A model generated the notes under the pieces. The model was given only the letters and a program-made list of their open reading frames with translations. It had not been told where the DNA came from and did no database searches. This document shows, in pieces, positions 4,593 to 55,023 of a stretch of 55,023 nucleotides of DNA. The DNA is from Alphaproteobacteria bacterium. GTDB lineage: Bacteria > Pseudomonadota > Alphaproteobacteria > UBA2136 > UBA6156. The position numbers and the translations under genes were made by a program. Within the stretch, counting starts at the first letter, position 1; each line of letters starts with the position of its first letter. The DNA lies in contig JBAQUT010000022.1 of the NCBI GenBank assembly GCA_049297695.1, positions 1 to 55,023 of the forward strand. Reading direction: 5' to 3'.

Positions 4593-4631
4593 CCTCTTGA
4601 CGCCCCCACCCGAACCCACCAAGGTGCCGGC

Positions 4632-9754: not shown

Positions 9755-10320
9755 GAAAATCAGTCGTCATGGCGAGCGGAACTTGTCCTACGAAGCCGCC
9801 ACTATGGGGCGTAGTAGGGGCGTGGCCATCGCGTGGTGTGGCCCTCGCCGTGGGGTTGTTGATAACAGCGTGTGGAGGCCAGTGGCAGTTGCCGAACTAC
9901 ATGGTGGCCCCCGCCAAAGGTGTGGTGGCCAGTTGCCCTCCCGAGGTGATAGGGCAGGCGCGGTGGGTGCAGGCCAATTTGCCCCGCGTGCAACTAGCCA
10001 GCCCGCGCCGCGCGGCGGTGAACGTGCTGGGCTACCCCGCCCATGTGGAAAGCTTTTTGCTGGCCGACAACAGCGCCGTGGACGTGTTGTTTTACCATAC
10101 GCCGGAAACCGCCTGCCGCCCCATGGAGCAGGGGTATGGCGGGTTGATGCCGTTGGTGTTCCAAAACGATAGTCTGTTGGGCTACGGGCAGGGGTATTAT
10201 CACACCATGGTGGTGCCCAACCTGCGGCAGCCGTTGGGCATGCCCTTGCAACGTAGTTTACCCACGGCACCGCAACCTAATGCCCAAGGCGGGGTGGGGC
10301 GGGGGGAACCGATACGGTAG
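9751..10320 (+). CDS. Putative lipoprotein
   Basis: Lipobox-like LLITAC after a hydrophobic stretch. ATGA overlap with the preceding gene. High-GC codon usage. Confidence 0.6.
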   Translation: MRKSVVMASGTCPTKPPLWGVVGAWPSRGVALAVGLLITACGGQWQLPNYMVAPAKGVVASCPPEVIGQARWVQANLPRVQLASPRRAAVNVLGYPAHVESFLLADNSAVDVLFYHTPETACRPMEQGYGGLMPLVFQNDSLLGYGQGYYHTMVVPNLRQPLGMPLQRSLPTAPQPNAQGGVGRGEPIR

Positions 10321-10322
10321 GC

Positions 10323-10351
10323 TTGACACAAAGGTTAAGAGTATCTATAAA
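10323..10351 (+). promoter_or_regulatory. Near-consensus sigma70-like promoter immediately after the lipoprotein stop codon
   Basis: TTGACA (10323-10328), exact 17-nt spacer containing AGTATC, then TATAAA (10346-10351). Confidence 0.45.
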
Positions 10352-10357
10352 AAGCAC

Positions 10358-10417
10358 ATCGCCTTTCGCGATTGGTTATCGACAATAAAGCCCCCGCTAC
10401 TACGGGGGCTTTTGTTT
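10358..10417 (+). ncRNA. Candidate small RNA (about 60 nt) bounded by a promoter and a terminator
   Basis: Predicted TSS about 7 nt after the -10 box. Internal hairpin ATCGC-CTTTC-GCGAT. Ends in the terminator at 10390-10417. No ORF. Confidence 0.35.
10390..10417 (+). terminator. Rho-independent terminator
   Basis: GCCCCCG (10390-10396), 6-nt loop, CGGGGGC (10403-10409), then TTTTGTTT. Confidence 0.75.
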
Positions 10418-10580
10418 AGCGTGTGAGGGTGACACTCAGGAAGAACCTGAGCTTGCCCCAGCACAACGCCAATTTACCGCAGAGGGTCATGGTATTCGCC
10501 TTTCGTTTGGTTTATCGACTGAGCGAACCATGCCTTGCGGCCTCTTTATATTGCACGTATTTCAAATAATGCCAAGAGAG

Positions 10581-11078: not shown

Positions 11079-11516
11079 ATGGTTGATGCATCTAAAGAGT
11101 TAGCCTATTTAGTAGAAAATGGTTTTGGAGATGCTGTGGTTGTGTCTCCTTCCAATGAGAAGATGTCTTTAAGAGATTACGTGCGTGGTACAAAATGGTC
11201 TTCAGGCCGTGAGCATAGACCTATTTTGTGTTCGGTTGAATGTGCTATTGGAACACGTCCGGTCTTGCTATGGGCTCAAGAGACGTACCAACATCTTATC
11301 TCCAACGTGAGTTTAGGTGATAAATCTGGCCAAGGTTTTGAAGGTGTGGCTATGGAAGTGTTGAATGCGTTTACAAACGCACGGCTGGCAGGAAGCGCTT
11401 TAGATGAAGTGCAAGTGAATTATAATGGTAGAAATTTATGCTTTACATCGCAAGATAGTCCTTACAAAATTTCTACCACCTTACAAAAAGTAACCACGCC
11501 CAACCACGGTCGTTGA
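11079..11516 (+). CDS. Hypothetical protein (AT-richer ORFan)
   Basis: 145-aa ORF starting 12 nt after the ndk stop, with a GGGGGA RBS-like tract. No recognisable motif. Confidence 0.5.
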   Translation: MVDASKELAYLVENGFGDAVVVSPSNEKMSLRDYVRGTKWSSGREHRPILCSVECAIGTRPVLLWAQETYQHLISNVSLGDKSGQGFEGVAMEVLNAFTNARLAGSALDEVQVNYNGRNLCFTSQDSPYKISTTLQKVTTPNHGR

Positions 11517-11539
11517 CATTGCAGCCTGAAACCCGTTGA

Positions 11540-12268
11540 ATGAACCCCATGAGATGGGGTTTTGTTTTGGCGGTGTTGGCCGTGGGGAGTGTTCAGGCGC
11601 AAAGTCTGCCCAGCGCCGTGCCGTTGCAGGCCGAGCAATTGCCTGCCGTGAGCACCACCCAGCCTGTGCCTCCTGCCAAAGCCTTCAGCGTGGAAGGTGT
11701 GGTAGTAAAGCTGGATGCCAGCGAGGGCTTTAACCGCGATATGGCCCTCACCCAAGCTGCCCGCCAAGCCTTGCCCGTGGCCTTGGGGCAGTTGGAACTC
11801 CCCGTACCCGCCAGCAAAGCGGCCGACATCGCCAAAAACGTGGGCGACCCCATGACCTTTGTGAAAAGTTACAAACTGGTGAAAGAGGTGTTGGTGCCTG
11901 CGTATCAGCTAACCGCCAACTTGCAATTTGACGGTGCCAAGCTGCAAACAAACTTTGGCAGCAAAGTGTCCGTGGTAAAAGTGGAGGTTGCGGCCGAGAT
12001 ATCGGATACCGAAACCGTAACGCCTGCTTCCGCCATCAGCGATGCCACTGTGAGTGTGGTGTTGGAGGCGGATACCGCAGGAGCGCAAGATGAGCTTTTT
12101 AGTAAACTGGAACAGGCGGGGATGAACCCCGTGTGGCAGCTGATACGTCGGGATGGTGCCACCGTAACCCTGAACACCGCGCTGGAAGGCGACGCCCTGG
12201 CGGACAAGCTTCGGAAAGCGGGCATGACAGCCGAGGCAGTTGACGGCGTGGTAACGGTACGGCCATAA
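11540..12268 (+). CDS. Secreted hypothetical protein
   Basis: Signal peptide MNPMRWGFVLAVLAVGSVQAQS. High-GC codon usage. 242 aa. Confidence 0.65.
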   Translation: MNPMRWGFVLAVLAVGSVQAQSLPSAVPLQAEQLPAVSTTQPVPPAKAFSVEGVVVKLDASEGFNRDMALTQAARQALPVALGQLELPVPASKAADIAKNVGDPMTFVKSYKLVKEVLVPAYQLTANLQFDGAKLQTNFGSKVSVVKVEVAAEISDTETVTPASAISDATVSVVLEADTAGAQDELFSKLEQAGMNPVWQLIRRDGATVTLNTALEGDALADKLRKAGMTAEAVDGVVTVRP

Positions 12269-12274
12269 AGCCTT

Positions 12275-12883
12275 GTGAAGCAGCTGATTTTCCCTCTGAA
12301 CACTGGGCCCGATTATTCGGCAGAAGCCTTTGTGCCCACCACGGGCAGTGCGGCCGTGCGGGCGGCTTTGGCGGTGTTGAAACCCAGTAGTATTCCCAAC
12401 ATCTTGAACGGGCTTGTGGTGGTAGGGGCTCCCGCCAGCGGCAAAACCCATTTGGCGGAAATGTGGCGAGCCGACCACCCCGCAGGCGGGGTGGTGGATG
12501 GGTTGGAGAGCTTGGATGCAGCGGCGCAAACCGAGGTGTTCCATACCTTCAACCGCCTGAAGGAGCAAGGCGGGGCGTTGCTGGTAACCAGCCGCGTGCC
12601 CGTGCAAGAGCTGCCGTTGTTGGCCGACCTCAAGTCCCGCCTCTTAACCCTGAACCACGTGTACCTGATGCCCCCCGATGATGCCGAGCTGGCCCAGCTG
12701 GTGGCCAAATGGGCGGCGGAGCGGCAGGTGGTGTTGCCGCCCGCTGTTACCACCTACTTGCTGACGCGGGCCGAGCGCAGCCCAGCGGCGCTGCGCACCC
12801 TTGTGGCGGCGCTGGACGAGTTGAGCTTGGAGGAGAAGCGGGGGGTGAGCGTGGGGTTGGTGAAAAAGGTGTTGGGGAGTTGA
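12275..12883 (+). CDS. hdaA: DnaA-related regulatory inactivation protein HdaA
   Basis: GTG start. QLIFPL N-terminus (clamp-binding-like). Walker A GAPASGKTHLAEMW. DnaA domain III/IV-like C-terminus. Confidence 0.85.
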   Translation: MKQLIFPLNTGPDYSAEAFVPTTGSAAVRAALAVLKPSSIPNILNGLVVVGAPASGKTHLAEMWRADHPAGGVVDGLESLDAAAQTEVFHTFNRLKEQGGALLVTSRVPVQELPLLADLKSRLLTLNHVYLMPPDDAELAQLVAKWAAERQVVLPPAVTTYLLTRAERSPAALRTLVAALDELSLEEKRGVSVGLVKKVLGS

Positions 12884-12908
12884 CAATCTTTATAAGTATA
12901 CATATATA
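12880..12908 (+). promoter_or_regulatory. Consensus sigma70-like promoter overlapping the hdaA stop codon, with a GTATAC box
   Basis: TTGACA (12880-12885) contains the hdaA TGA. 17-nt spacer with GTATAC (12896-12901). TATATA (12903-12908). Confidence 0.5.
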
Positions 12909-12934
12909 AAGGTTCAATACAAAGGAGCCTCAAC

Positions 12935-13477
12935 ATGACATCCCCCCAGATTGTAGAAGCACGTAAAAATAAAGCAAAAAAAGCCATTATGTGTGCAGTA
13001 AAGCTGGCTTCTGGAAAAATTGAATTAGATTATGATGCGGATAAAGTTTTGAGAAGCATAAACTATGCTGCAAAAGGCCTCAACTGCGATGAAGCAATGC
13101 TTGAAGAATTACTTTGTGAACTGAGAGATCATGGTGAAGTATTATATGATGAAACAACGAGAACAGCAATGTTGGAGCGTGAAGTAGAGGTAAAGCCCTT
13201 CGAGATACCTGTGCTCATAGCGGAGCCAGTACGTTCCGAAGGATTGCCTCATGAAAAATTGATTTTGGAAACCTTGGCGAAATCGGGCACGGCTATGAAC
13301 ACATTCCAGATAGGAGAAAAAGCTTTTGGGACTATTTTTGAAAGCCAGACCCCTGAATTTTTAGCAACAATTAAGGTATTGACGGAAAAAGGAGTACTTG
13401 TACGCTATGAACCCAATGGCTCGGCTAAATCCAAAAAAATCGGAAGCCAAGCGGCAACTTACGCGTTGTCGAAATAG
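12935..13477 (+). CDS. Hypothetical winged-helix-like protein (islet ORFan family member)
   Basis: 180 aa. AAAGGAG RBS. The segment PHEKLILETLAKSG...VLTEKGVLVRYEP resembles SHEQVILEALKTAC...LVRKDRVVG of the 15758 gene. AT-richer. Confidence 0.6.
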   Translation: MTSPQIVEARKNKAKKAIMCAVKLASGKIELDYDADKVLRSINYAAKGLNCDEAMLEELLCELRDHGEVLYDETTRTAMLEREVEVKPFEIPVLIAEPVRSEGLPHEKLILETLAKSGTAMNTFQIGEKAFGTIFESQTPEFLATIKVLTEKGVLVRYEPNGSAKSKKIGSQAATYALSK

Positions 13478-13545: not shown

Positions 13546-14934
13546 ATGCGCATGTTAGTGTTGGCTTTGTTGTTGGCTGCAAACGTGGCCTATGCCCGTG
13601 AAGATGCTGTGCAAACCCGCACCAGCTTTGCCCGCGCCGTGCGGGAAGCCGCCCCTGCGGTGGTGAACATTTATGCCGCCAAGCGCGTGTTGCAGCGGGT
13701 GGGGCCGGCGTTGAACGACCCATTGTTCAACCAACTGTTTGCAGGGCAGGGGCCGTTGCGCGCCAAAGTGGAGCGGAGCCTAGGCAGCGGCGTGATTGTG
13801 GATGCGAGCGGCGTGCTGGTAACCAACTTGCACGTGGTGGAAGGTGCCGACGCCATGAAGGTGGTGATGGCCGACGGGCGCGAGTTTGCGGCGCGGTTGA
13901 TTAACAGTGATGAAAAGCTAGACCTTGCCGTGCTGCGGATGGAGGGGAATGGCCAGCGCTTCCCCGCCGCGCGGTTTGGCGATAGCGACACCCTGCAAGT
14001 GGGCGATGTGGTGCTGGCCGTGGGTAATCCGTTTGGGATTGGCCAGAGTGTGAGCATGGGCGTGGTAAGCGCCGTGGAGCGGAGCAATGCGGCGCTTAGC
14101 CAGTACGGCCAGTTTATCCAAACCGACGTGGCCATTAACCCCGGCAACAGCGGCGGCGCGTTGATTGACAGCACGGGGGCGTTGGTGGGCATCAACAGCG
14201 CTATTTTCAGCAAAACGGGCACCAGCGTGGGCATCAGCTTTGCCATACCCGCCAGTTTGGTGCGGGCGGTGGTGAACGATATTGTGAGTACCGGCCACGT
14301 AAGCCGCCCATGGTTTGGGGCCACGGGGCAAAACATACCCCCCGCATTGGCGGAAAAACTTGGCTTGGGGCGCGGGCAAGGGCAAGGGGTTATCCTCTCC
14401 GACGTGATGCCGGGCAGCCCCGCCGCCCGCGCGGGCATTAAGGCTGGCGACGTGATTGTGGGCATGGATGGAAAATCTGTAACCGACCCCGCCGCGTTGA
14501 ACGAGCGGATTTTGGCAACCCCCAACCTGATTGGCCGCGCCGTGCCGCTCACCCTCTGGCGGGAAGGGCATACACAAACGGCCACCATCACCTTTGAAGC
14601 CTTGCCCGACCGCAACCCCGCCGATGCCGTGAAGCTGGGCGGCGTGGGGCCGTTGGCGGGGGTGGGGGTGGAAAAACTTTCCCCTTCCTTGAACGTGCTT
14701 TTAGACTTGCCTGTGGCCGCCGAAGGCGTGGCCATTACCACCCCCAGCACGCGGAGCGACCCACGTTATGCCCTGATTATCAACGGCATCAAAGCGGGGG
14801 ATGTGCTGCTGGAAGTGAATCAACGGCGCATCCGTACCGTAGCCGATGCCCAGCGGGCCGCCAGCGAGCGCGACCAAAGCTGGATTATCAAGCTCCAACG
14901 CGGGAATGCGGTGATAACGCTGGTGGCGGAGTAG
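13546..14934 (+). CDS. degP: Periplasmic serine endoprotease, DegP/DegQ (HtrA) family
   Basis: Signal peptide. Triad HVVEGAD / DLAVLRM / GNSGGALID. Two PDZ-like C-terminal regions. Confidence 0.95.
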   Translation: MRMLVLALLLAANVAYAREDAVQTRTSFARAVREAAPAVVNIYAAKRVLQRVGPALNDPLFNQLFAGQGPLRAKVERSLGSGVIVDASGVLVTNLHVVEGADAMKVVMADGREFAARLINSDEKLDLAVLRMEGNGQRFPAARFGDSDTLQVGDVVLAVGNPFGIGQSVSMGVVSAVERSNAALSQYGQFIQTDVAINPGNSGGALIDSTGALVGINSAIFSKTGTSVGISFAIPASLVRAVVNDIVSTGHVSRPWFGATGQNIPPALAEKLGLGRGQGQGVILSDVMPGSPAARAGIKAGDVIVGMDGKSVTDPAALNERILATPNLIGRAVPLTLWREGHTQTATITFEALPDRNPADAVKLGGVGPLAGVGVEKLSPSLNVLLDLPVAAEGVAITTPSTRSDPRYALIINGIKAGDVLLEVNQRRIRTVADAQRAASERDQSWIIKLQRGNAVITLVAE

Positions 14935-14936
14935 GG

Positions 14937-14964
14937 TTGACAAATCTTTCTTTAAGTATACATT
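14937..14964 (+). promoter_or_regulatory. Sigma70-like promoter with a GTATAC box directly after the degP stop
   Basis: TAG stop 14932-14934. TTGACA 14937-14942 followed by AATCTTT. GTATAC 14956-14961. TACATT as a candidate -10. Confidence 0.45.
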
Positions 14965-14988: not shown

Positions 14989-15687
14989 ATGAGCCATTGG
15001 ACACACATCTCGAAAGATGAAGCTTATGTAATAGATAGAATTATTTATAAACTCGGCGATATGGCCACTGCGGATGATATTGTTGACGAATTAAACAGGC
15101 AGAACGTGGCTATACGCCCAGAGTTTGTTAGATTGCATGTAGAAGATACTCATGCGATGGGAAAATTGATTCGTTTGGATGGAACCATTGCGGACGCTTA
15201 TATACGCTCTAAAAAGTTTGTAGGTCCGTACGCAGAAATAGATGAGGCACTGGCAGATAAGGTAAAAACCCTTGTTCGAGAAGCTGGAGTTGAAGCAGAT
15301 AACAAATATTTAATGCCACGACTTCTTCCAAAAACGCATTTCTATGATCGAGCGAATGATGCGCTTATGCATTATTCAATTGATGTGAGGGAAGGCTATG
15401 GTGCAACGGAAAAATATGAAAAACCAGTTCGGCAAGTAATAGATTCTCTGTTTAGAGAGGGTTCGTTACGCATTGGAGGTTGTGAAAACCCTGTTAATAA
15501 TGATAGTTTTTTTGTAAACTGGCATGGCTCTAATAAAAAACATAAAATTTTCTTTTATGTACGTGAAGATGAGCTTATTTTACCTCAGAATGTTGCCAAA
15601 TATCGGGATGCCAAAACAGCCGCTGAGATTGCCCGCAGAGATGAATTAACAAAGGGGTGGGATAAAGATATGGGCGATAGAGGTTAA
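14989..15687 (+). CDS. Hypothetical winged-helix-like protein (islet ORFan family member)
   Basis: ATG at 14989 with an AAAGGAG RBS. Shares ...TADDIVDEL...LIRLDGT... and a C-terminal ...KIFFYVREDELILPQNVAKYR block with the next gene. Confidence 0.6.
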   Translation: MSHWTHISKDEAYVIDRIIYKLGDMATADDIVDELNRQNVAIRPEFVRLHVEDTHAMGKLIRLDGTIADAYIRSKKFVGPYAEIDEALADKVKTLVREAGVEADNKYLMPRLLPKTHFYDRANDALMHYSIDVREGYGATEKYEKPVRQVIDSLFREGSLRIGGCENPVNNDSFFVNWHGSNKKHKIFFYVREDELILPQNVAKYRDAKTAAEIARRDELTKGWDKDMGDRG

Positions 15688-15757
15688 GGATTTAGAAAAA
15701 TTTAGGTTAGAGACTCTTTATTTTTATAGGAATAAATGACGTAAAAGGAGAAACAGA

Positions 15758-16645
15758 ATGATCCAAAGCCATGAACAAGTTATTTTAGAAGCTTTAAAAA
15801 CTGCCTGCGAACAAGCGGAGCGTTTTGGTGCATATCCTGATGTTGTATTAAAAAAATCGCTTTTGAATTTAAAAAACTTGGAAGGTATGACAGGCTTGCG
15901 TCTTTATGAAGTAACAACGGCTTTGGCTGGCCTTGTGAGAAAAGACCGAGTTGTAGGTACCGACCGAGGCGAATATGGCCTTGTTAAAACTTTTGAATGG
16001 GTTGCGCGTTACAACGCCCATGAAGCGATTCGGTGTGCGATTGTTGAGCGAGGATGCTGTGCGACGGTGGATGAACTTGCGGCCGATTCGAACGTTGTAA
16101 AAGCTGGTTGGAATAAACAAGAGCTGTCCAGCTACGTAACATCGCAATTCCAGCCTATGGCATTTGTGCGTTTGGATGGGAACATGGAACAAGGATTCTA
16201 CCCAGTAAATTTTGAGAATTGGGATCGTGAAGAATTAGGCCCCAACCAACCCGATGAACGCATGTTTCATGAAATTCATGCTGCCGTGCGTTTTTCAGAA
16301 TGCGATGCAGGTTTTGATGCCCTCCGACTGATTCTTTTGCGAGATAGTTACCGTACAGACGGTATAAGCTCGAGAATAGCCTACAATGTGATGCGTCCAA
16401 CAGAGCAGGCAAGAGTTCGGAAAGAAATATTTGATGAAACAATTGCGTACATGATTAATACGGGTGTTATCAAATGGGCGGCCTACGAAATTTCACCGAA
16501 TCAAGGTTTAATATTGAGAGCTTTCCTTGGTGACGATTCTCGACCCAATCATCCCGTATTTATGTACGTTGCTAAAGATGGGAAGAAGCTGCCAGATATG
16601 GTGGCAGAGCGGAGAGCCAGCGACTCCAAAGGCATGGGTCGTTAA
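15758..16645 (+). CDS. Hypothetical multi-winged-helix-like protein, tandem paralog of 14989..15687
   Basis: 295 aa. AAAGGAG RBS. ...TVDELAAD...FVRLDGN... and ...PVFMYVAKDGKKLPDMVAERR align by eye with the preceding gene. Confidence 0.6.
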   Translation: MIQSHEQVILEALKTACEQAERFGAYPDVVLKKSLLNLKNLEGMTGLRLYEVTTALAGLVRKDRVVGTDRGEYGLVKTFEWVARYNAHEAIRCAIVERGCCATVDELAADSNVVKAGWNKQELSSYVTSQFQPMAFVRLDGNMEQGFYPVNFENWDREELGPNQPDERMFHEIHAAVRFSECDAGFDALRLILLRDSYRTDGISSRIAYNVMRPTEQARVRKEIFDETIAYMINTGVIKWAAYEISPNQGLILRAFLGDDSRPNHPVFMYVAKDGKKLPDMVAERRASDSKGMGR

Positions 16646-18838: not shown

Positions 18839-19699
18839 ATGAAACCCTACCTGCACCACGCCCCGCACCCTACGGCACCTGTGGTGGTGATATTGCCGGG
18901 GGTGAACAGCGGGCCGTATTTGTTTGAAGGCGCGGTGGCGGCGCTGGGGGATACCCACCGCTTGATTATCGCCAACCCGCCCGGCTGTGGCGGCACGCCC
19001 ATGCCCATGCCGCTGACGGCCGAAACTTACGCCCGCACGGTGCTGGCGTTGCTGGATGACATGCAGGTGGAGGGTTCCTTCAGCCTTCTCGGCCACAGTT
19101 TGGGCAGTTTTGCGGCGCAAGAGCTGGCCCGTGTGGCGCCAGAACGGGTGGAACGGTTGATACTGGCCAGCACTAGCATCGGCCAGCCCTACATGGCGCG
19201 GGATACGTTGGCCATACGCGGGGTAACGGGCATGAGTTTTTGGGATTTATCCCGCGCTATCGCCAAAGACCCTGCAACCCATATGAAGCATTTTTTCGGC
19301 CCTGCGTTCCCTGTGCAAAACGCGCAGGCGTATCTGGATTTTATCGCCAAACGCCAAGCCAACCTGGCCCCCAAGCAGGTGACTGTGGCGCAGTTTGCAG
19401 CGGGCGGGGCGTTCAGCAGTTACCGTTGGGCGCATAACCTAACGCCGCCCACGTTGGTGGTACAGGGCGGGGCGGATATCCTCACCCCTGCCTCCAGCGC
19501 CCGCAAATTGGCGCAATTTATACCCAACGCCCGTTACCTTGAGTTTTACGGGGTAGGGCACTTCCCCATGCTGGAGCACGAAGGGTTTTACCCCAGTATC
19601 AAACGCTTTTTGCTGGGCCATGCGGAAGGCGAGGTGCTGGACGACCATGTGGGTGTGTGGGAAAAACTCCAGCGCAGTTGGTTGCGGTTGCATGGATAG
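18839..19699 (+). CDS. Alpha/beta hydrolase
   Basis: GHSLGS elbow, GGADILTP and GVGHFPMLE motifs in canonical order. Confidence 0.8.
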   Translation: MKPYLHHAPHPTAPVVVILPGVNSGPYLFEGAVAALGDTHRLIIANPPGCGGTPMPMPLTAETYARTVLALLDDMQVEGSFSLLGHSLGSFAAQELARVAPERVERLILASTSIGQPYMARDTLAIRGVTGMSFWDLSRAIAKDPATHMKHFFGPAFPVQNAQAYLDFIAKRQANLAPKQVTVAQFAAGGAFSSYRWAHNLTPPTLVVQGGADILTPASSARKLAQFIPNARYLEFYGVGHFPMLEHEGFYPSIKRFLLGHAEGEVLDDHVGVWEKLQRSWLRLHG

Positions 19700-19716
19700 T
19701 GTTTTTAGTATACATA
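19688..19716 (+). promoter_or_regulatory. Putative promoter with a GTATAC box spanning the hydrolase stop codon
   Basis: TTGCAT (19688-19693), 17-nt spacer, TACATA (19711-19716). GTATAC at 19708-19713. The upstream stop TAG is at 19697-19699. Confidence 0.35.
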
Positions 19717-24108: not shown

Positions 24109-25219
24109 ATGATACCCGAGCACAAAGCCAGTATTGCCCGTATTGAGGAGGCGTTAAGCCTCCTCGGGAGGTCGCTTTGACATTGATGTTTCGCGCCAGA
24201 AACTTTTGGATTTAATCCAGCAAACCGAAGACCCCGACCTTTGGAACAAGCCCGATGCGGCCAAAAAAGTGATGCAAGACAAGCGGCGTTTGGAAGTGAA
24301 TATCGGCCGTTTTGATGCCGTGAAGCGGCGGCTGGACGATGCCGTGGTGCTGATTGGCTTGGGCGATGAAATGGGGGATGCGGGAAGCATCAAAGAAGCG
24401 GAGGCCGAATTGGCAGAGCTGGTGAAGGAAGCCGACAAGCTGGAAACCCAATGTTTGCTGGGCGGCGAGATGGATGGCAGCAACGCGTATTTGGAAATCC
24501 ACGCGGGTGCGGGGGGAACCGAGAGTTGCGATTGGGCGGGTATCCTGCTCCGCATGTACACCCGCTGGGCCGAGCGGGAAGGGTTTAAGGTGGATGTGGT
24601 GGAGTATTCCGACGGGGATGCCGCAGGGATAAAAAGCGCCACACTGCACATTCAGGGCGATTTTGCCTATGGCATGGCCAAAACCGAAGGCGGCGTGCAC
24701 CGCTTGGTGCGGATAAGCCCCTTTGATAGCAACGCCCGCCGCCACACCAGCTTTAGCAGCGTGTTTGTGTACCCCGAGGTGACGGACGATATTGAAATTA
24801 CCATCAACCCCGCCGATTTGCGGGTGGATACCTACCGCGCCCAAGGGGCGGGCGGCCAGCACGTGAACAAAACGGAAAGTGCGGTGCGGATTACCCACTT
24901 GCCCACCAACACCGTGGTGGCCAGCCAGCAGGATAAAAGCCAGATACGCAACCGCGACATTTGCATGCGCATGTTGAAGGCCCGCCTGTACGAGCAGGAG
25001 GTGCAACGCCGCGAAGTCGAGGCCAACAAGTTTGCCGCCAACAAAACCGAAATCGGCTGGGGCCACCAAATACGCAGCTACGTGCTGCAACCCTACCAAA
25101 TGGTGAAAGACTTGCGGACGGACGTGGAAACCAGCAACACTACCGCCGTGCTGGATGGTGATTTGGAGGCGTTTATCAAAGCCGCGTTGGCGCAGCGGGT
25201 GGGGAATGTGCGGAGTTAA
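24109..25219 (+). CDS. prfB: Peptide chain release factor 2, translated with a programmed +1 frameshift at 24175-24181
   Basis: Frame 0 reads ATG 24109 ... CTT TGA (24175-24180). The +1 frame continues as DIDVSRQKLLDLIQQ... into the 24206..25219 ORF. SPF and GGQ (RAQGAGGQHVNKTESAVR) motifs present. Confidence 0.93.
24166..24181 (+). other. prfB recoding site: SD-like GGGAGG, 3-nt spacer, slippery CTT TGA C
   Basis: GGGAGGTCGCTTTGAC read directly. It matches the classical RF2 autoregulatory frameshift cassette. Confidence 0.9.
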
Positions 25220-32418: not shown

Positions 32419-33246
32419 ATGAGCATTACCCAAATCCCCCATGTGAAGCATGTTATTGCTGTGGCCAGCGGCAAAGGTGGCGTGGGCAAAAGCACCACGG
32501 CGGTAAACCTTGCAGTGGCGTTGGCAGCCAGCGGCAAGCGCGTAGGGCTGTTGGATGCCGACGTGTACGGCCCCAGCCAGCCCCGTATGTTGGGCGTGGC
32601 GGATAAAGAACCCATGAGCGATGGCAAAGAAATTGAGCCCGTGATTGGCCATGGCGTGCGGATGATGAGCATGGGCTTTATGGTGGACGAACACACCCCC
32701 ATGGTATGGCGCGGCCCCATGGTGCAAAGCGCCCTGATGCAAATGTTGCGGCAAGTACGTTGGGGCACGGCCAAGGCACCATTGGATGTGCTGGTGGTAG
32801 ACATGCCCCCCGGCACAGGCGATACCCAGCTGACCATGGTGCAGCAAGTGGCCCTCAGCGGCGCCGTGATTGTGAGCACTCCGCAAGATATTGCCCTGAT
32901 TGACGCCCGCAAGGGGTTAGAGATGTTCAAAAAAACCAACGTACCCATTTTGGGCATTGTGGAGAACATGAGCATGTTTTGTTGCCCCCATTGCGGGAAG
33001 GATACGCCCATTTTCAGCGAAGGCGGCGCCCGCGCTATGGCGAAGGAACTGGGGTACGAACTGTTGGCCGAAGTACCGTTGGATGTGCAAATCCGTACCA
33101 ATACCGACGAGGGGAAACCCTTGGTGCTCAGCGCGCCTGATAGCAAGGCTGCGGCTATTTACCGTGATTTGGCAACGAACGTATGGGAAGCCCTGAAAGT
33201 TGCCGAAGCCCGCAAGCCTGGGCCGGTGAAGATTGTGATTGAGTAA
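32419..33246 (+). CDS. apbC: Fe-S cluster carrier ATPase, Mrp/ApbC/NBP35 family
   Basis: Deviant Walker A ASGKGGVGKSTT and the CPHCG cluster-binding motif. Confidence 0.93.
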   Translation: MSITQIPHVKHVIAVASGKGGVGKSTTAVNLAVALAASGKRVGLLDADVYGPSQPRMLGVADKEPMSDGKEIEPVIGHGVRMMSMGFMVDEHTPMVWRGPMVQSALMQMLRQVRWGTAKAPLDVLVVDMPPGTGDTQLTMVQQVALSGAVIVSTPQDIALIDARKGLEMFKKTNVPILGIVENMSMFCCPHCGKDTPIFSEGGARAMAKELGYELLAEVPLDVQIRTNTDEGKPLVLSAPDSKAAAIYRDLATNVWEALKVAEARKPGPVKIVIE

Positions 33247-33247
33247 G

Positions 33248-33276
33248 TTGACAGTATACGTTGTGTGTGGTTGAAT
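33248..33276 (+). promoter_or_regulatory. Putative promoter with TTGACA abutting GTATAC, 1 nt after the apbC stop
   Basis: TAA 33244-33246. TTGACA 33248-33253. GTATAC 33254-33259. TTGAAT 33271-33276 after a 17-nt spacer. Confidence 0.4.
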
Positions 33277-33309
33277 GAGGAAGATTATTCAATTTTACGG
33301 AGGATTTTC

Positions 33310-36246: not shown

Positions 36247-36378
36247 GTAAAGTCTCCTTATATATAGCCGCAATCTGCCACCGCGCAGGCCGTGGGGCAA
36301 GGGCTTGCATACGCACAGGCGCCTAAGCAACGGGCAGGGGCGCTTGACGCCCCCTTACAACCCTCTTACAACAACAGG

Positions 36379-36860: not shown

Positions 36861-36963
36861 CAGGATGACAGGGTAACTGGTAACAGGATTGTGTTCCTAT
36901 ATGATTCATTGTGTTGTCCTATAACCCGTAACCCAGTAACCAGTTATCCTGTAACCAGTAACC
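36861..36963 (+). repeat. GTAAC-containing octamer-like repeat array in the secG-pyrG spacer
   Basis: GTAAC at 36873, 36880, 36928, 36936, 36951 and 36958. CAGGATGACAGGGTAAC at 36861-36877. ATTGTGTT..CCTATA duplicated at 36888-36924. Confidence 0.75.
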
Positions 36964-36973
36964 GGAGCCACTC

Positions 36974-38662
36974 ATGACCCCCACCATCCCCGCCCCTCCC
37001 GGCTTGGCCAAACTTGGCAAAACCCACTATATTTTTGTCACCGGCGGGGTGATGAGCAGCTTGGGCAAAGGCCTTACCGCCAGCGCCTTGGGGGCCATGT
37101 TGCAGGCGCGGGGCTTCACCGTGGTGCAACAAAAGCTAGACCCCTATTTGAACATCGACCCCGGCACCATGAGCCCCTTTCAACACGGCGAAGTGTACGT
37201 GACAGACGACGGCTGTGAAACGGATTTGGATTTGGGCCACTACGAGCGATTTACGGGCGTTGCCACCAGCCGCAGCAGCAACATTACGGCGGGGCAAATT
37301 TACTGGGATATTTTGCACAAAGAACGCAAAGGCGATTATTTGGGCAAAACCGTGCAAGTGGTGCCTCATGTGACTAATGAGATTAAAGCCTTCATTAGCC
37401 GCATGGACGGGCAGGCCGACTTTAGCATCGTGGAGATTGGCGGCACGGTGGGTGATTTGGAAAGCGGAGCGTTTTTTGAGGCTATCCGCCAGTTTGGCCG
37501 CGAAGTGGGCTGGCGCCGCAGCTGCTACATGCATTTGGCCTTTGCCCCGTACCTTGCGGCGGTGGGCGAATTGAAAACCAAACCTGTGCAAAACGCGGTG
37601 CGGGATTTACGCCAAATCGGCATCCAAGCCGACATTGTGGTGGTGCGGAGCGAGGTGGAGCTGGGGCGGGGTGAGCTGGAAAAAGTGGCCATGTTTGCCA
37701 ACCTGCCCGTATCCCATGTGGTGGGCTGCCCAGATAGCGATACGCTGTACCGCGTGCCCGTAACCCTGCACGCCCACGGGCTGGATGACGCCGTGTTGAG
37801 CCATTTTGAAATAAAAGCCAAAGAAGGCGATTTAAGCCGCTGGGAGCATATTTCCAGCATTATGGCCAACCCGCCCCGCACGGTGACCATTGCCGTGGTT
37901 GGCAAATATGTGCAGCTGGGGGATAGTTACATCAGTTTGAACGAAGCCCTGTTGCACGGGGGCTTTGCCCACGATGCCAAGGTGGAGATTGACTTTGTGG
38001 ACAGCGAAACGCTAGAACCCATGACCGACGCCTCCGTGGCGGAACGTTTGGCCAAAGCCGATGGTATTTTAGTGCCCGGCGGGTTTGGGGCGCGGGGAAC
38101 AGAGGGGAAAATGCGGGCCATCCGCTACGCGCGTGAAAACAAGGTGCCGTATTTTGGCATTTGCTTGGGTATGCAGCTGGCAGCCATTGAGTTTGCCCGC
38201 CACGTGGCCAACTTGGCGGGCGCGGGCAGCACCGAATTCACCCCCGAGCGCGGCGCCCCCGAGCACCCCCTGATTTGCATGATGACCGAATGGCACGCGG
38301 GCGACCAAAAGCGCCAAGGCAGCGCCACCGATTTGGGCGGAACCATGCGGTTGGGCGCCTACCCGTGCAGCATCGGCAAGGGCACGCTGGCGGAAAAAGC
38401 CTACGGCGCCACCACCATTTCGGAACGTCACCGCCACCGCTACGAGTTTAACCCCCACTACAAAAAGATTTTGGAAAACGCAGGTCTGGTGTTCAGCGGT
38501 ACAAGCCCGACTGACCCCGACTTGGTAGAAATTGTCGAACTGCCCAAAGCCACCCACCCCAGCTTTTTCGCCTGCCAATACCACCCGGAGTTTAAAAGCC
38601 AGCCGTTAAAGCCCCACCCGTTGTTTGCGGCATTTGTGGGGGCGGCAGTGAAGGGGAAATAG
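36974..38662 (+). CDS. pyrG: CTP synthase
   Basis: YIFVTGGVMSSLGKG, GATase Cys GICLGMQ, HRHRYE motif. GGAG RBS before the ATG at 36974. Confidence 0.97.
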   Translation: MTPTIPAPPGLAKLGKTHYIFVTGGVMSSLGKGLTASALGAMLQARGFTVVQQKLDPYLNIDPGTMSPFQHGEVYVTDDGCETDLDLGHYERFTGVATSRSSNITAGQIYWDILHKERKGDYLGKTVQVVPHVTNEIKAFISRMDGQADFSIVEIGGTVGDLESGAFFEAIRQFGREVGWRRSCYMHLAFAPYLAAVGELKTKPVQNAVRDLRQIGIQADIVVVRSEVELGRGELEKVAMFANLPVSHVVGCPDSDTLYRVPVTLHAHGLDDAVLSHFEIKAKEGDLSRWEHISSIMANPPRTVTIAVVGKYVQLGDSYISLNEALLHGGFAHDAKVEIDFVDSETLEPMTDASVAERLAKADGILVPGGFGARGTEGKMRAIRYARENKVPYFGICLGMQLAAIEFARHVANLAGAGSTEFTPERGAPEHPLICMMTEWHAGDQKRQGSATDLGGTMRLGAYPCSIGKGTLAEKAYGATTISERHRHRYEFNPHYKKILENAGLVFSGTSPTDPDLVEIVELPKATHPSFFACQYHPEFKSQPLKPHPLFAAFVGAAVKGK

Positions 38663-41563: not shown

Positions 41564-41786
41564 CTACAACCCCCACAAACCTTGTCCGTTATCCGATGAA
41601 ACCCAGCGGATGCAAGCCCTGAACTCCTTGGCCGCCCGCCGCGATACCCTGCTTCGCAATCCAAACCCCACCGCCCGCCAGCGCGCAACCCTTGCCGAGC
41701 TTACCCACGACATCGCAACCCTTTCTCGCTGCGGTCCCGATGCCCCCGAACCTATTGAGGGCCTTGAAGACGACCTAGGTTATTGA
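41550..41786 (+). CDS. Small hypothetical protein (weak call)
   Basis: 78-aa ORF. Overlaps the previous ORF by 14 nt and the lipB 3' end by 35 nt. Confidence 0.2.
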   Translation: MPVLSYNPHKPCPLSDETQRMQALNSLAARRDTLLRNPNPTARQRATLAELTHDIATLSRCGPDAPEPIEGLEDDLGY

Positions 41787-42420
41787 ACAACGCCTTGTCC
41801 ACATCCGCCATGCTGGCTGTACACCCCAATACCGCAAGGCTGGTCACAGGCTTGGCCAACCCGCAGGGCACAATGCGGTTGTAAGCCGTCAGGTCGGGGT
41901 TCACGTTCAGCGCAATGCCATGGTACGCAACCCATTTCCGCACTCGCACGCCGATGGCCGCAATCTTGGCGAAATCACGTTCCTGTAACCCTGTAACCCT
42001 GTCATCCTGTAACCCTGTAACCCTGTCATCCTGTAACCCTGCCTTCACCCACACCCCCACATCATCTGTCGCAAACCCTTCCACCCCCAGCTCCCTCAAA
42101 CTGGCAATCAACCACTGCTGAAGATTGGCAATGTGCTCCCTCAAATCCCGTGTTTCCCGTAAATCTTTAATAACATACACCACCCGCTGCCCCGGCCCAT
42201 GGTAGGTGGTTTTGCCGCCGCGCCCGGTGGGGATGACGGGGATACCCCCCACATCCAGCAACTCGGAGGGCATCGCCCCCGTGCCCGTGGTAAAACAAGG
42301 CGGGTGCTCCACAAAATACGCGCGTTCCCGCCCGCCCGCTAACACCTCGGCTACCGCCGCCTCCTGCAAGGCTAAAGCTTCTGCGTAGGGGGTCAAGGAG
42401 GGGAGGGGCTTGATGTCCAT
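41752..42420 (-). CDS. lipB: Octanoyltransferase LipB carrying an in-frame repeat insertion
   Basis: RGGKTTYHGPGQ and KIAAIGVRVRKWVAYHG motifs. The segment GLQDDRVTGLQDDRVTGLQ is encoded by the tandem repeat at 41982-42045. Confidence 0.92.
   Translation of the reverse strand: MDIKPLPSLTPYAEALALQEAAVAEVLAGGRERAYFVEHPPCFTTGTGAMPSELLDVGGIPVIPTGRGGKTTYHGPGQRVVYVIKDLRETRDLREHIANLQQWLIASLRELGVEGFATDDVGVWVKAGLQDDRVTGLQDDRVTGLQERDFAKIAAIGVRVRKWVAYHGIALNVNPDLTAYNRIVPCGLAKPVTSLAVLGCTASMADVDKALFNNLGRLQGPQ
41982..42045. repeat. Tandem repeat inside lipB: eight 8-nt units forming a 24-nt period x about 2.7
   Basis: Units CCTGTAAC, CCTGTAAC, CCTGTCAT, CCTGTAAC, CCTGTAAC, CCTGTCAT, CCTGTAAC, CCTGCCTT, read directly from 41982. 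Confidence 0.9.
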
Positions 42421-42972: not shown

Positions 42973-43809
42973 ATGCGTATGTTGAAAGTATCTCTGTTAG
43001 GTGCCACCTGCTTGATGAGCGGAATGGCAGCAGTTCATGCATTGGAAACAAGCGCCGTGAACAACAACATGGCCGAGGCGATGATCTCCGAGCAGCGCAC
43101 CAGCACCCTGTTTACCATTTTGCAAACCGCCTTTAACGCCTTAACGGCCCGTGTTGGGGCGGTAGAAACCCACGTTGGCCTGTTGCAAGTAACGGTGGAT
43201 AACCTGAGCACCCGCCTGACCACGGCCGAAACCGATATTGCCACCTTGAAAACTGATGTGAACAGCCTAAAAGCTACCGATCAATATTTGTTGGCCGAAG
43301 TAGGGGCTTTAAAAACCCGAATGGATTCTGCCGAAGGTCAAATCGCTTCATTATGGACGTACATTCAATACCTGATAGATCGTGACAATGCCCAACAAGC
43401 CCAGATCAACGATTTGTATGCGCGTGTGAGTGATTTGCAAAATCAAATCAACGCTTTACGTGCCCGTATTGAAGCTTTGGAAGCTCGGACAAATGGATTG
43501 CCAACGGATTGCAATGCGGGTGGAGTCTTGATTTTTAACGGTTCAATATGGACATGTACAAAAACTTATGCGGTCGCGAGCAATCTGTGTAATGGCTTAC
43601 GGTGCGAATCAGGTGCTCAATCAGGTGTAGCTACGTTAAATAAAATATGTACGATATTAGGCAAAACAACGTATCACTCTACGCCGGCAGGTGGTACGGG
43701 TGGTGCTGGTTGTAATGGTTGCAGTTGGGGTGCTTGGACAGGAAGTTCATGGTCATCTTTTTCTAGTTGTAATGGTTGTGTGCCATTACTTCGAGTTACA
43801 TGTTATTAA
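42973..43809 (+). CDS. Secreted coiled-coil protein with a 10-Cys C-terminal domain
   Basis: AAAGGAG RBS. Signal peptide. Heptad-like Leu/Ala/Gln region about 130 aa long. C-terminal about 100 aa shared with the next gene, ending LLRVTCY. Confidence 0.65.
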   Translation: MRMLKVSLLGATCLMSGMAAVHALETSAVNNNMAEAMISEQRTSTLFTILQTAFNALTARVGAVETHVGLLQVTVDNLSTRLTTAETDIATLKTDVNSLKATDQYLLAEVGALKTRMDSAEGQIASLWTYIQYLIDRDNAQQAQINDLYARVSDLQNQINALRARIEALEARTNGLPTDCNAGGVLIFNGSIWTCTKTYAVASNLCNGLRCESGAQSGVATLNKICTILGKTTYHSTPAGGTGGAGCNGCSWGAWTGSSWSSFSSCNGCVPLLRVTCY

Positions 43810-43833: not shown

Positions 43834-44409
43834 ATGTACTATAAATTTTTACTATGCCTCCTGTGGTTGTACCCACTAAGCTTGGCTCATTCGCTTGAAG
43901 CTACAGCCCATGTTAATCCATCTCAAGCTGTGAACGAAGGCCTTTCTATGAAAGTAGATGCCTTGCACACAGCTACTATGGCGGTGGTGAACAGCATTCT
44001 GCATTGTAATAACATTGGGAAAATGTATGTCTCCGATCCTTCGGTTCCAGGGAAAGATGTGAATGGGTGTGTCGATATAGATGGAGGGTTGCCGAATCCA
44101 GCCACGGAATGCGATATCGGTTCTGTCGCTATTGCCGATGGTACGGATTGGACATGCACACAAACACTTGCTGTTCCCAATACGTTGTGTGGTGGTTTGC
44201 GGTGCGAATCTGGCGCCCAATCAGGTGTAGGTACGTTAAATAAAGTCTGTCAATCGCTTGGTAAAAACAAATATTATTCAACTCCAGCTGGTGGTACAGG
44301 GAGTTCGGGTTGTGATGGATGCTCGTGGGGTACTTGGACGGGAAGCGCATGGACATCGTTCAACCATTGTAACGGCTGCAAGCCGTTGCTTCAGGTAACA
44401 TGTTATTAA
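43834..44409 (+). CDS. Secreted protein with the same 10-Cys C-terminal domain (paralog)
   Basis: Signal peptide MYYKFLLCLLWLYPLSLA. The C-terminal block ...WTCTQTLAVPNTLCGGLRCESGAQSGVGTLNKVC...CDGCSWGTWTGS...CNGCKPLLQVTCY aligns with 42973..43809. Confidence 0.65.
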   Translation: MYYKFLLCLLWLYPLSLAHSLEATAHVNPSQAVNEGLSMKVDALHTATMAVVNSILHCNNIGKMYVSDPSVPGKDVNGCVDIDGGLPNPATECDIGSVAIADGTDWTCTQTLAVPNTLCGGLRCESGAQSGVGTLNKVCQSLGKNKYYSTPAGGTGSSGCDGCSWGTWTGSAWTSFNHCNGCKPLLQVTCY

Positions 44410-46444: not shown

Positions 46445-47113
46445 TTATTCCGCAGCAAGAGATGAGGATTGATGATACAAATCTTTGGCATTCTCAAATT
46501 CACGAGGCTCCCTGTTGGTAGCTGCCACAAGAATTTGTTGTACTTGATGTAATTCTTCTGGGTACAAACGATCCACCACCGCCCCTGTCAGAGATGAGGC
46601 TGAAGATGCCGCCAACAAGGCCTCTTCCGAATACGAATCAATGCGCCACAAACGAACACGCCCTACCGAGGTATCCACCGAAGAAATATGTTGAACGGGT
46701 GAGCTAATCGGGTCTTGCTTCAAAGGTGATTGTAAATACGATATCCTGTTTGTAGCAGGGTCGTAATAACCCGCCGCCAAAATAACCCGAAGTTGAGAGC
46801 CCTTATCAACGCATGTTTTCACCACGTCTCCGGGTTGGAATGCTGCCTGCGGGTTCTGGTATCTAAAAAGTGCTTGGAAATCACGGGCGATATCTTCGGA
46901 TTTCGGGTAAAATGCCGTCTGGTCATGGGGTCTGAAATCAGCCACGAAACCATGCTCAAGGGTTGCCAGCGATACATAAGGGTCTACGGGAACCGATAAA
47001 ACGCACCCATGCGTCATACGTTGGAAAAAACTGTTGCTGATAATGCAATGTGGCCGTGATGTTTCGTAGTTAACAACAAACATACCGCGTGGATAAGTAA
47101 TCATGTTGAGCAT
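46445..47113 (-). CDS. Hypothetical protein (AT-richer ORFan)
   Basis: 222-aa ORF. Upstream AT-rich spacer holds TATAAT and GTATAC (47131-47136). No recognisable motif. Confidence 0.55.
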   Translation of the reverse strand: MLNMITYPRGMFVVNYETSRPHCIISNSFFQRMTHGCVLSVPVDPYVSLATLEHGFVADFRPHDQTAFYPKSEDIARDFQALFRYQNPQAAFQPGDVVKTCVDKGSQLRVILAAGYYDPATNRISYLQSPLKQDPISSPVQHISSVDTSVGRVRLWRIDSYSEEALLAASSASSLTGAVVDRLYPEELHQVQQILVAATNREPREFENAKDLYHQSSSLAAE

Positions 47114-47187
47114 CCTATTATAATATTTTAGTATACTCTAAATATTCTAAATGTAAATGCTTCATACTTTAAATTTTCAACCAGTTG

Positions 47188-49817: not shown

Positions 49818-49892
49818 ATGAAACTGAACGGCAGAATAGCTGTTTGGCTCGGGCGGTGGAGAATCACATTCTCTATCCGTTACCTGCCTTAA
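49818..49892 (+). CDS. 24-codon mini-ORF (MKLNGRIAVWLGRWRITFSIRYLP) with RBS and terminator (speculative)
   Basis: AAGGAG lies 6 nt upstream of the ATG at 49818. The stop is 5 nt before a strong stem-loop. It is on the strand opposite to both neighbours. Confidence 0.3.
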   Translation: MKLNGRIAVWLGRWRITFSIRYLP

Positions 49893-49897
49893 AGCAA

Positions 49898-49928
49898 CAA
49901 ACCCCCGTTAGCGCGGGGGTTTGCTTTT
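49898..49928 (+). terminator. Strong stem-loop with a T-tract
   Basis: CAAACCCCCG (49898-49907), 6-nt loop, CGGGGGTTTG (49914-49923), then CTTTT. It could also act for the minus-strand dehydrogenase gene. Confidence 0.55.
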
Positions 49929-49985
49929 ACCTCCAATCAACGAAAAGGAGTAACGCATTCTTTATAAGCAGAATATTCCCCGTTG

Positions 49986-51191
49986 TCAAGCCCGCCACAC
50001 CCCGCACGGGTCCACAACCGCTTTCCCCGCAAGGTCGGCTTTACTCAGCTTTTTGAACACGCTGTGGGCGGTGAGACTCACCACCACATCAGCGTCAGCC
50101 AGGGCTTGTTCAAAACCCACCAATGGACGTTCCCATACCTTCAAAAACGGCTCCACAATACGCAGTTCCAGACCGTTATCCTTGGCCAGTTCGTTCACCA
50201 CCACAACGCTGGGGCTTTCGCGCAAGTCGTCCACATCGGGCTTGTAGGCCAGGCCCAAACAGGCAATCACGGGCTTGGCTTTTCCGGTCGCTTTGGCGGC
50301 TTTCCGCACCTGCTCGGCCACCCACAACGGCTTGCCATCGTTCACCGCCCGCGTGGCCTGCATTTGGGGGGTAAGTTCCGGGGCTTCGGCAATGATAAAC
50401 CATGGGTCTACCGCAATGCAGTGCCCGCCCACCCCCGCTCCGGGGGTTAAAATGTTCACACGGGGGTGGTGGTTGGCCAACTTGATGACGTTGAACACAT
50501 CCAGCCCCATCTTGTGGCAAACAAGAGAAAGCTCGTTTGCAAAGGCAATCTGGGCGTCGCGGCTGGCGTTTTCCACCAGCTTCACCATCTCGGCCTCGCG
50601 GGCGGTGCAGGGCAACAGGGCGCCCGTGCAAAAGCTTTTGTACAGCTCCATGCCCCGCTGGGTGGCACGGTCGGTGAGGCCCCCCACCAAACGGTCATTG
50701 GCCACCATCTCGCGCAGCGTGGCGCCGGGAATCGCCCGTTCCGGGCAAAACACATAATCCACCTTATCCACCAAGTCGGGGCGGGCGGCTTCCATCAAGG
50801 CTTTCACATTGCGTTCGGTGGCGCCCACGGGGCTGGTGGATTCCAGCACCACCAAATCCCCCGCCTTCAGCACGGGCACAAGGCTGCGGGCGCCGGCTTC
50901 CACAAAGGTCATGTCGGGCGCGTGGGTGGCGTGGTCGGTGGGGGTGGGTAAACTTAAAATAAACATATCCGCCGCACTAGGCGTCAACGCCGCGCTCAAC
51001 CGCCCGCTGGCATGGGCTTCCGCCACCAGTTCCGGCATGCCCGTTTCATGGAAGGGGCATTGCCCCGCATTCACGGCCTCCACCACGCGGGGGGATATAT
51101 CCACCCCCCGTACCGTGTGCCCCGCCTTGGCCAAAATAGCCGCCATGGGCAAGCCCATGTAACCTAGGCCGATGACGGAAATGGTGCTCAT
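49986..51191 (-). CDS. Nucleotide-sugar 6-dehydrogenase (UDP-ManNAc/UDP-GlcNAc dehydrogenase-like; WecC/WbpA family)
   Basis: MSTISVIGLGYMGLPMA Rossmann start at 51191. Catalytic GGHCIAVDPWF. Confidence 0.9.
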   Translation of the reverse strand: MSTISVIGLGYMGLPMAAILAKAGHTVRGVDISPRVVEAVNAGQCPFHETGMPELVAEAHASGRLSAALTPSAADMFILSLPTPTDHATHAPDMTFVEAGARSLVPVLKAGDLVVLESTSPVGATERNVKALMEAARPDLVDKVDYVFCPERAIPGATLREMVANDRLVGGLTDRATQRGMELYKSFCTGALLPCTAREAEMVKLVENASRDAQIAFANELSLVCHKMGLDVFNVIKLANHHPRVNILTPGAGVGGHCIAVDPWFIIAEAPELTPQMQATRAVNDGKPLWVAEQVRKAAKATGKAKPVIACLGLAYKPDVDDLRESPSVVVVNELAKDNGLELRIVEPFLKVWERPLVGFEQALADADVVVSLTAHSVFKKLSKADLAGKAVVDPCGVWRA

Positions 51192-54659: not shown

Positions 54660-54736
54660 GGCGCCTTAGCTCAGTTGGTTAGAGCAGAGGAATCATAATC
54701 CTAAGGTCCCCTGTTCGAGTCAGGGAGGCGCCACCA
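54660..54736 (+). tRNA. tRNA with CAU anticodon (elongator Met or Ile2/lysidine type), CCA encoded
   Basis: Acceptor GGCGCCT/AGGCGCC. D-arm GCTC-AGTTGGTTA-GAGC. Anticodon loop ATCATAA. T-arm CCCTG-TTCGAGT-CAGGG. Folded by hand. One G-A mismatch at 27:43. Confidence 0.85.
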
Positions 54737-54756
54737 TTTGTTTATCCACCACATTT

Positions 54757-54854
54757 CCTTAGCTCAGTTGGAGTTTTATGTAAGCGCACCTCTGGTGCGA
54801 CGCCGAGGAATCATAATCCTAAGGTCCCCTGTTCGAGTTAGTGGGACGCCACCA
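54757..54854 (+). pseudogene. Chimeric, degenerate copy of the adjacent tRNA-CAU
   Basis: It shares a 15-nt block (54757-54771), a 34-nt block (54805-54838) and the CGCCACCA end with the intact gene. A 33-nt segment replaces TTAGAGCA, and neither the acceptor stem nor the D stem can form. Confidence 0.5.
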
Positions 54855-55023
54855 TTTTTCGCAAAGCGAAAAATGCCCTACGTAGCCTTGGCGAAGAAGG
54901 GCTGTTAAAATAATCCCCATCTATCCCTTCCACACTTGCAACCCCCCTTCCACCTATGCAACAGTGCGGTATGGAAACCCCCAACACCCCCACCCCCGCC
55001 CTTGTTCTCAAAGCCCTGATGGC

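Follow-up and report, generated by a model that had tools for sequence, protein, structure and literature searches.

Predicted promoters sharing a GTATAC box ahead of AT-rich orphan genes at junctions between conserved genes

The interval 12880-12934 of the window (the whole 55,023-nt stretch of DNA that was analysed) is a predicted sigma-70-type promoter followed by the 5'UTR of an AT-rich, lineage-specific gene, orphan 1, and a 28-nt module of this promoter is nearly copied at the islet of orphan genes past degP; either the promoter was reused or the two islets have an operator in common, and both may apply. The reading we prefer, with a probability of about one half, is that the promoters of these islets were partly copied from one another and that the GTATAC palindrome they carry is a probable repressor operator. 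Feature coordinates are collected in Table 1.

Table 1. Promoter elements, GTATAC boxes and orphan genes discussed in the text, by position in the window
Feature	Positions	Strand	Remarks
Lipoprotein site, TTGACA-17-TATAAA	10323-10420	+	TTGACA at 10323; TATAAA 10346-10351; AGTATC, not GTATAC
-35 hexamer TTGACA, hda site	12880-12885	+	contains hda stop TGA (12881-12883); also present in L004
AGTATACAT box, hda site	12895-12903	+	palindromic core GTATAC 12896-12901; lies within the -35/-10 spacer
Candidate -10 TATATA, hda site	12903-12908	+	spacer 17; no T at -7
Shine-Dalgarno AAAGGAG	12922-12928	+	ATG at 12935 starts 6 nt on
Orphan 1, 180 aa, 41% GC	12935-13477	+	single homologue; two winged-helix-like domains predicted
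Second promoter, TTGACA-16-TACATT	14937-14964	+	AGTATACAT at 14955-14963; starts 2 nt past degP stop
Two-orphan islet degP/rarA, 40-45% GC	14989-16645	+	232 aa, 14989-15687; 295 aa, 15758-16645
Third AGTATACAT	19707-19715	+	GTATAC 19708-19713; 8 nt past hydrolase stop; 18 nt ahead of ATG 19734
Orphan 3, 187 aa	19734-20297	+	inserted where hydrolase and rluC of relatives overlap
apbC site, 17-nt spacer, TTGAAT	33248-33276	+	TTGACA 33248-33253 fused to GTATAC 33254-33259
Fifth site, TTTACA-16-TATACT	47130-47157	-	-10 inside AGTATACT; GTATAC 47131-47136

A predicted promoter and an orphan gene at the end of hda

Promoters were sought with a sigma-70 criterion of a TTGACA-like -35 and a TATAAT-like -10 element separated by 16-18 nt, the latter having A at -11 and T at -7, and for counting across the window we required at least 10 of 12 consensus matches plus A at -11. 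By this count the window holds 9 sites against 4.35 +/- 1.7 in shuffles, including those at 12880, 14937, 10323 and 47157 (minus strand). The -35 hexamer is a perfect TTGACA at 12880, 14937 and 33248, and the sites at 12880 and 14937 match the consensus at 10 of 12 positions each. An earlier note on this DNA, whose hexamer coordinates all proved correct when checked against the sequence, had described the promoters as near-consensus; this is true of the -35 boxes only and not of the -10 elements (TATATA, TACATT and TACATA, two of them without T at -7). We nonetheless consider the predicted promoters at the hda and degP sites probably functional. At the hda site, RNA polymerase carrying the housekeeping sigma factor would use TTGACA, the 17-nt spacer and TATATA, giving a transcript with AAAGGAG and the ATG at 12935; the ribosome-binding motif AAGGAG is itself common in short spacers of the window (7 copies versus 1.0 expected).

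A search of 5.8 billion proteins gave orphan 1 one homologue, at 61% identity; among 1.84 billion cluster representatives there was none. The homologue keeps its position, lying on contigs L004 and L005 in the order ndk-small ORF-241 aa-hda-orphan-degP. The codon comparison of the two sequences shows orphan 1 to be a genuine gene maintained by purifying selection, as pN is 0.23 against a pS of 0.70, at which synonymous sites are saturated (dN/dS ~0.14). In its AlphaFold model (pLDDT 64.6) two helix-helix-helix-strand-strand units are predicted, and Foldseek places proteins with a single or tandem winged helix at the top of its matches, all with E of 0.006 or more.

The spacer between hda and the orphan is identical to that of L004 at 26 of 51 positions. 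TTGACA, with the TGA stop, and GTATAC are both retained, again 10 nt apart, with GTATAC forming the longest stretch of conserved bases; with the hexamer specified in advance, we estimate the probability of its retention by chance at ~0.001-0.02. The -10 element of L004 is poorer than that of the window. This comparison, one orthologous spacer in extent, is the best evidence that GTATAC may be under constraint.

Orphan genes inserted into a compact ancestral block

Relatives of graded distance were found through DegP and then read in their genomic context; a GTDB scan with DegP returned two distant relatives only. L007, with a DegP 62% identical, is syntenic from fabD to asmA and has degP abutting rarA, and hda adjoins degP in L011 and L002. 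Gene order in these relatives indicates that the ancestral block hda-degP-rarA-hydrolase-rluC was contiguous and compact. The islets are thus very probably insertions, and on this point the earlier proposal of orphans placed between conserved genes was borne out, with the hda/degP, degP/rarA and hydrolase/rluC junctions all found empty in relatives. The ORF at 11079-11516, also listed as an islet, is no recent insertion: small ORFs homologous to its C-terminal part occupy this position in L007 (41%, E 7e-11) and in L004. The window version of that ORF is N-terminally extended and AT-richer than its L007 and L004 counterparts.

The orphans at 14989, 15758 and 19734 occur at none of the relatives' loci, and the orphans match no Pfam, NCBIfam, PHROG or PADLOC family. 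Searches of viral contigs found no relatives for the two orphans tested, and phage records none for one. The orphans also show no similarity among themselves, and the idea that orphans 1, 2 and 15758 are paralogues was rejected for lack of significant sequence similarity; the model of orphan 2 (pLDDT 44) was too low in confidence for comparison. Neither cassette ends, right-hand repeats nor a flanking repeat family were found at the islets, and no recombinase or transposase domain in or near them.

No terminator-like site was detected on the plus strand past the orphans, and translation of orphan 3 is coupled to that of rluC, the new ATG of which overlaps the orphan's TGA; from this we infer that the islet promoters would also read into the downstream housekeeping genes. 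Such read-through would allow promoter-bearing insertions to be tolerated in an operon, with spacers perhaps trimmed until the -35 box touches the stop codon.

A near-copy of the module at a turnover hotspot past degP

At the degP site the stop codon TAG (14932-14934), GG, TTGACA (14937-14942) and GTATAC (14956-14961) follow one another, and TACATT satisfies the -10 rule of the promoter tool. An unbiased all-versus-all local alignment of spacers returned the hda and degP promoters as the best-matching pair, identical at 25 of 28 positions in the 28-nt alignment GTTGAC-AATCTT--TATAAGTATACAT, which includes two indels; the score was equalled in 1 of 500 shuffled spacer sets (p ~0.002). The hda module is further from its orthologue than from the degP module, which points to either a recent local copy or co-evolution with a binding protein specific to the window.

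The two-orphan islet behind this promoter is absent in every relative examined and is younger than orphan 1, because it is missing from the L004/L006 lineage. In L006, the closest relative (DegP 78% identical), homology breaks off right after GCGGAGTAGGG, that is after TAGGG, 2 nt past the degP stop and at the last base before TTGACA; beyond this break L006 has its own TTGTAT-16-TATAAT promoter and no GTATAC. The degP/rarA junction is empty in L007 and L003. L011 has 79 aa there, L009 has 206 aa and L010 has 228 aa, while L006 has 88 aa plus >106 aa, the P0006 contig 92+59 aa and the window 232+295 aa. The ORFs of the relatives are mostly AT-richer than their own genomes and unrelated to the window pair, and among them only those of L006 and L009 are related to each other. 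Read across lineages, the junction is a turnover hotspot filled with different, unrelated ORFs. The L006/L009 pair (L006 2087-2404, L009 7012-7632) constitutes an orphan family of its own, 51% identical and with the N-terminus ...SLEYFHYDGSQ..., that is absent from the window.

Other sites with the box or a related promoter

The third box lies between the hydrolase gene and rluC, where the hydrolase TAG occupies 19697-19699 and a TTGCAT (19688-19693) is separated by 17 nt from TACATA (19711-19716, without T at -7); as a promoter this arrangement matches the consensus at only 6 of 12 positions. TTGCAT had been taken for the -35 of an arriving promoter, a view we had to give up. It is part of TTGCATGG, which encodes a conserved Leu-His-Gly, included the start codon of the ancestral rluC and reads TTGCATGGTTGA in L007, where the hydrolase and rluC overlap by 8 nt; being ancestral coding DNA, it did not arrive with the islet.

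Past the apbC stop (TAA, 33244-33246), the box is followed by an orphan of ~146 aa whose ATG is at 33310. This site too had been presented as a near-consensus promoter, which fails at the -10: the sole candidate, TTGAAT, has no A at -11 (position 2). A metagenome scan with ApbC found 0 of 36 loci syntenic at the apbC/ppiD junction. The fifth site, on the minus strand, precedes an orphan at 46445-47113.

At the lipoprotein site the promoter is followed by a hairpin and an intrinsic terminator of ~60 nt, and the unit is a candidate sRNA by its layout; Rfam returned no family for it. A second copy was seen at 49885-49995 on the minus strand, aligning without gaps across the promoter with 10315-10430 on the plus strand. 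Both copies consist of GGCTTGACA-17-TATAAA, ~33 nt with a small hairpin and a G+C-rich terminator, both fold well (z -3.9 and -3.5), and the stop codon upstream of each copy adjoins TTGACA or lies inside it. They may form a two-member sRNA family, and the unit is missing from the corresponding spacers in L004 and L007.

How unusual the GTATAC box is

Over the whole window GTATAC is not enriched (7 copies versus 5.07 expected). Five of the seven lie in short intergenic spacers, in or beside promoter-like elements, where 0.44 would be expected and 0 of 2000 shuffles reached five; the short-spacer set comprises 31 spacers and 2166 nt, with dinucleotide-preserving shuffles as the null. GTATAC is among the top three enriched words in these spacers, together with a Shine-Dalgarno hexamer. 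A k-mer correction was applied because the motif had been picked after inspection, and allowing for ~2000 hexamers the excess has p ~0.2; over all k-mers p is ~0.1-0.2, and the box does not reach significance from the window by itself. Low-GC orphans follow all five intergenic copies, and AGTATACAT is present three times, each time in the orientation of its downstream gene. The two intragenic copies are explained by coding, that at 25803 encoding a Val-Tyr kept in a paralogue. No excess over shuffles was found for the extended palindrome TANGTATACNTA, and the 14-mer common to the hda and hydrolase sites is not significant alone (58 of 500 shuffled sets as good).

Use of the box as a -10 element (TATACN) was considered and rejected for the plus-strand sites, where its spacing from TTGACA is 11-15 nt and no alternative -35 is present; at 47131 it is possible. 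An operator, bound by a repressor occupying the core promoter, is the likeliest role for a palindrome placed between or over the core elements. A LexA-like regulator encoded at 866-1384 was tried as the binder and dropped, being UmuD-like. The winged-helix-like orphan 1 would be one candidate, speculatively.

TTGACA next to stop codons

Of the 18 TTGACA copies in the window, six have a same-strand stop codon no more than 3 nt away, where 0.1 would be expected, and the abutment pointed out earlier is to that extent real. It is not specific to cassettes: two of the six have no orphan downstream, the copy at 11513 leading to a conserved 242-aa gene and that at 49989 (minus) heading the second copy of the 10323 sRNA-like unit, ahead of an oxidoreductase. 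By these positions, -35 boxes abutting stop codons appear as a general habit of this genome and no mark of a cassette.

The promoter at 11513 is conserved in three lineages (window 11513-11551, L004 1493-1540, L007 8133-8165) as TTGACA-17-TTGAAT (TCCAAT in L007), 6-7 nt and an ATG, ahead of a 241-244-aa gene; in L004 the upstream ORF ends in another frame and the promoter is kept regardless. Its geometry suggests a leaderless mRNA. The sequence TTGACA-17-TTGAATGA is common to this site and the apbC site (33248-33278). The TTGACA at 24177 belongs to the prfB programmed +1 frameshift site (GGGAGG TCG CTT TGA C, 24110-24185), which also explains why the RF2 ORF seems to begin with a TTG at 24206.

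Further repeats and paralogues in the window

At the contig end, the 3' part of a tRNA-Met with a few downstream bases (54684-54739) is repeated 118 nt on (54802-54857, 91% identity), which looks like the attachment-site scar of an integrated element. Adjacent AT-richer paralogues beside tRNA-Leu (42973-43809 and 43834-44409) have a common Cys-rich C-terminal domain, 67% identical over 107 aa, and the former has a coiled-coil N-terminal part. Tandem 8-nt CCTGTAAC repeats at 41981-42044, within the ORF 41752-42420, encode repeated GLQDDRVT; GTAACC-rich repeats (36910-36973) lie immediately upstream of the ORF 36974-38662; and CTTGACGCCCCC is found in two G+C-rich spacers (4593-4631 and 36331-36354).

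Weighing the explanations

Whether GTATAC is a constrained cis-element is, in our judgement, an even call, and its identification as a repressor operator, which we make by analogy, is offered more tentatively still. Compositional coincidence, in which AT-rich DNA full of TA steps yields GTATAC and only the -35, -10 and Shine-Dalgarno elements are functional, we hold to be unlikely. It would account for the unremarkable count in the window as a whole, for the variable distance from the -35 to AGTATAC (9, 12, 13 and 0 nt), for the coding origin of both intragenic copies and for the ease with which the hda/hydrolase 14-mer is matched, and some 10-14% of shuffled sets contain a 7-mer in at least five spacers or a 9-mer in at least three. 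It sits poorly with the concentration of the box in short spacers ahead of low-GC orphans in all five cases, with the rarity of the hda/degP match in shuffles and with an offset kept in L004 despite saturated synonymous sites. A decidedly less probable account is descent alone, the degP promoter being a recent copy of the hda promoter 2 kb away and the box a passive passenger that binds nothing. The greater likeness of the two window modules than of the hda module and its L004 orthologue (25/28 versus 17/24) and the younger age of the degP islet are what it predicts, and reuse of promoters upstream of unrelated genes is documented (PMC3575422), but it leaves unexplained both why GTATAC is kept in L004 and why there are further boxes, with otherwise dissimilar flanks, at 19708, 33254 and 47131; a module of 28 nt is moreover too short to exclude convergence on functional elements. 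The earlier suggestion of a shared operator or shared origin stands as far as the 25/28 module and the L004 retention carry it, and is weakened by the variable spacing of box and -35.

We see very little prospect for the stronger suggestion of mobile promoter-plus-gene cassettes, in which a dedicated mechanism would target stop codons and the box would serve as an end or core site. TTGACA does coincide with the left edges of the islets, as at the L006 homology break; the Hda proteins of the more distant relatives L007 and L002 are ~5 residues longer than that of the window, whose stop is supplied by TTGACA; and the box lies ~5-18 nt inside every left edge. That distance is variable, however, no right-end repeat matches, none of the seven GTATAC copies in the window is at a right edge, and the orphans are mutually unrelated, with no recombinase or transposase and no relatives in the viral contigs (two orphans) or phage records (one) searched. 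Stop-abutting TTGACA also heads conserved genes, kept at 11513 in L007 and L004, and the islets of relatives use other promoters, without the box; the cassette reading is largely disfavoured. Type II systems recognise six-base palindromes of the GTATAC type, and a target of a methyltransferase or restriction-modification system acting as an epigenetic promoter switch would overlap the core promoter elements as the box does. We rate this lowest of all: GTATAC is neither avoided nor in excess in the window, no methyltransferase gene was seen there, and the flanking A...AT also common to the sites would not be needed by an enzyme with a 6-bp site. The preferred reading of partly copied promoters with a probable operator could be extended to a lineage-specific regulon for new genes, in which one repressor, possibly orphan 1, would recognise AGTATACAT in the islet core promoters and the module would be copied onto arrivals at hotspots, placing foreign genes under common control from entry while re-supplying transcription to the interrupted housekeeping genes; this extension is a long shot.

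Comparison with known systems

Two described operators use the same palindrome. The repressor DipR of Alcaligenes faecalis, of the GntR/FadR family, has the footprint TTGAAGATAGTATACCGTTTCAGG with a GTATAC core, covering -12 to -35 (PMC11472048), and CcdA, the RHH antitoxin of the F plasmid, nucleates on GTATAC palindromes (PMC5389731). As in those operators, the 6-bp palindrome here lies over or between the sigma-70 -35 and -10 elements and recurs at several promoters of one genome; unlike in them, the downstream genes are unrelated orphans rather than a catabolic cluster or a toxin-antitoxin pair, and binding is only predicted. The locus is not assignable to either system, because no GntR (PF00392), FadR or RHH protein was found with Pfam and NCBIfam among the window proteins scanned, orphans included.

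The statement in the earlier note that no described mechanism is known was too strong, since promoter reuse, hotspots of horizontal gene transfer and phage morons are all analogues. The morons of Hendrix and colleagues are reportedly inserted units with their own promoter, defined in phage genomes; the islets likewise bring a predicted promoter, but they have no terminators and lie within a housekeeping block. Putative mobile promoters (Matus-Garcia, Nijveen and van Passel 2012, PMC3575422) were described as highly similar sequences upstream of non-homologous genes in one genome, without a recognisable mobile element; to qualify, the identity has to be 80% or more across 50 nt or more. The near-identical module ahead of unrelated proteins resembles these, whereas 25/28 over 28 nt with two indels falls short of the formal 50-nt length. 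Hotspots of horizontal transfer between core genes were described by Oliveira, Touchon and Rocha (2017, PMC5635113), and their parallel here is the degP/rarA junction, where the same core flanks enclose AT-richer content that varies by lineage and is in places empty; the difference is that the islets are of one or two genes without terminators and are found not at tRNA or prophage sites but within an operon-like block of housekeeping genes.

Current views are thus not overturned, as transfer hotspots, promoter reuse and GTATAC operators have all been described, and the locus is a further example of known genome plasticity with a shared motif that is modest and partly validated. Its interest lies in AT-rich islets of one or two genes at exact gene boundaries, with their own predicted promoter and no terminator, which show how insertions within operons can be tolerated. 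Should the box prove to be a true operator, unrelated orphans of an uncultured proteobacterial lineage would be linked in a small regulon, and the box would provide a handle on what these orphans respond to.
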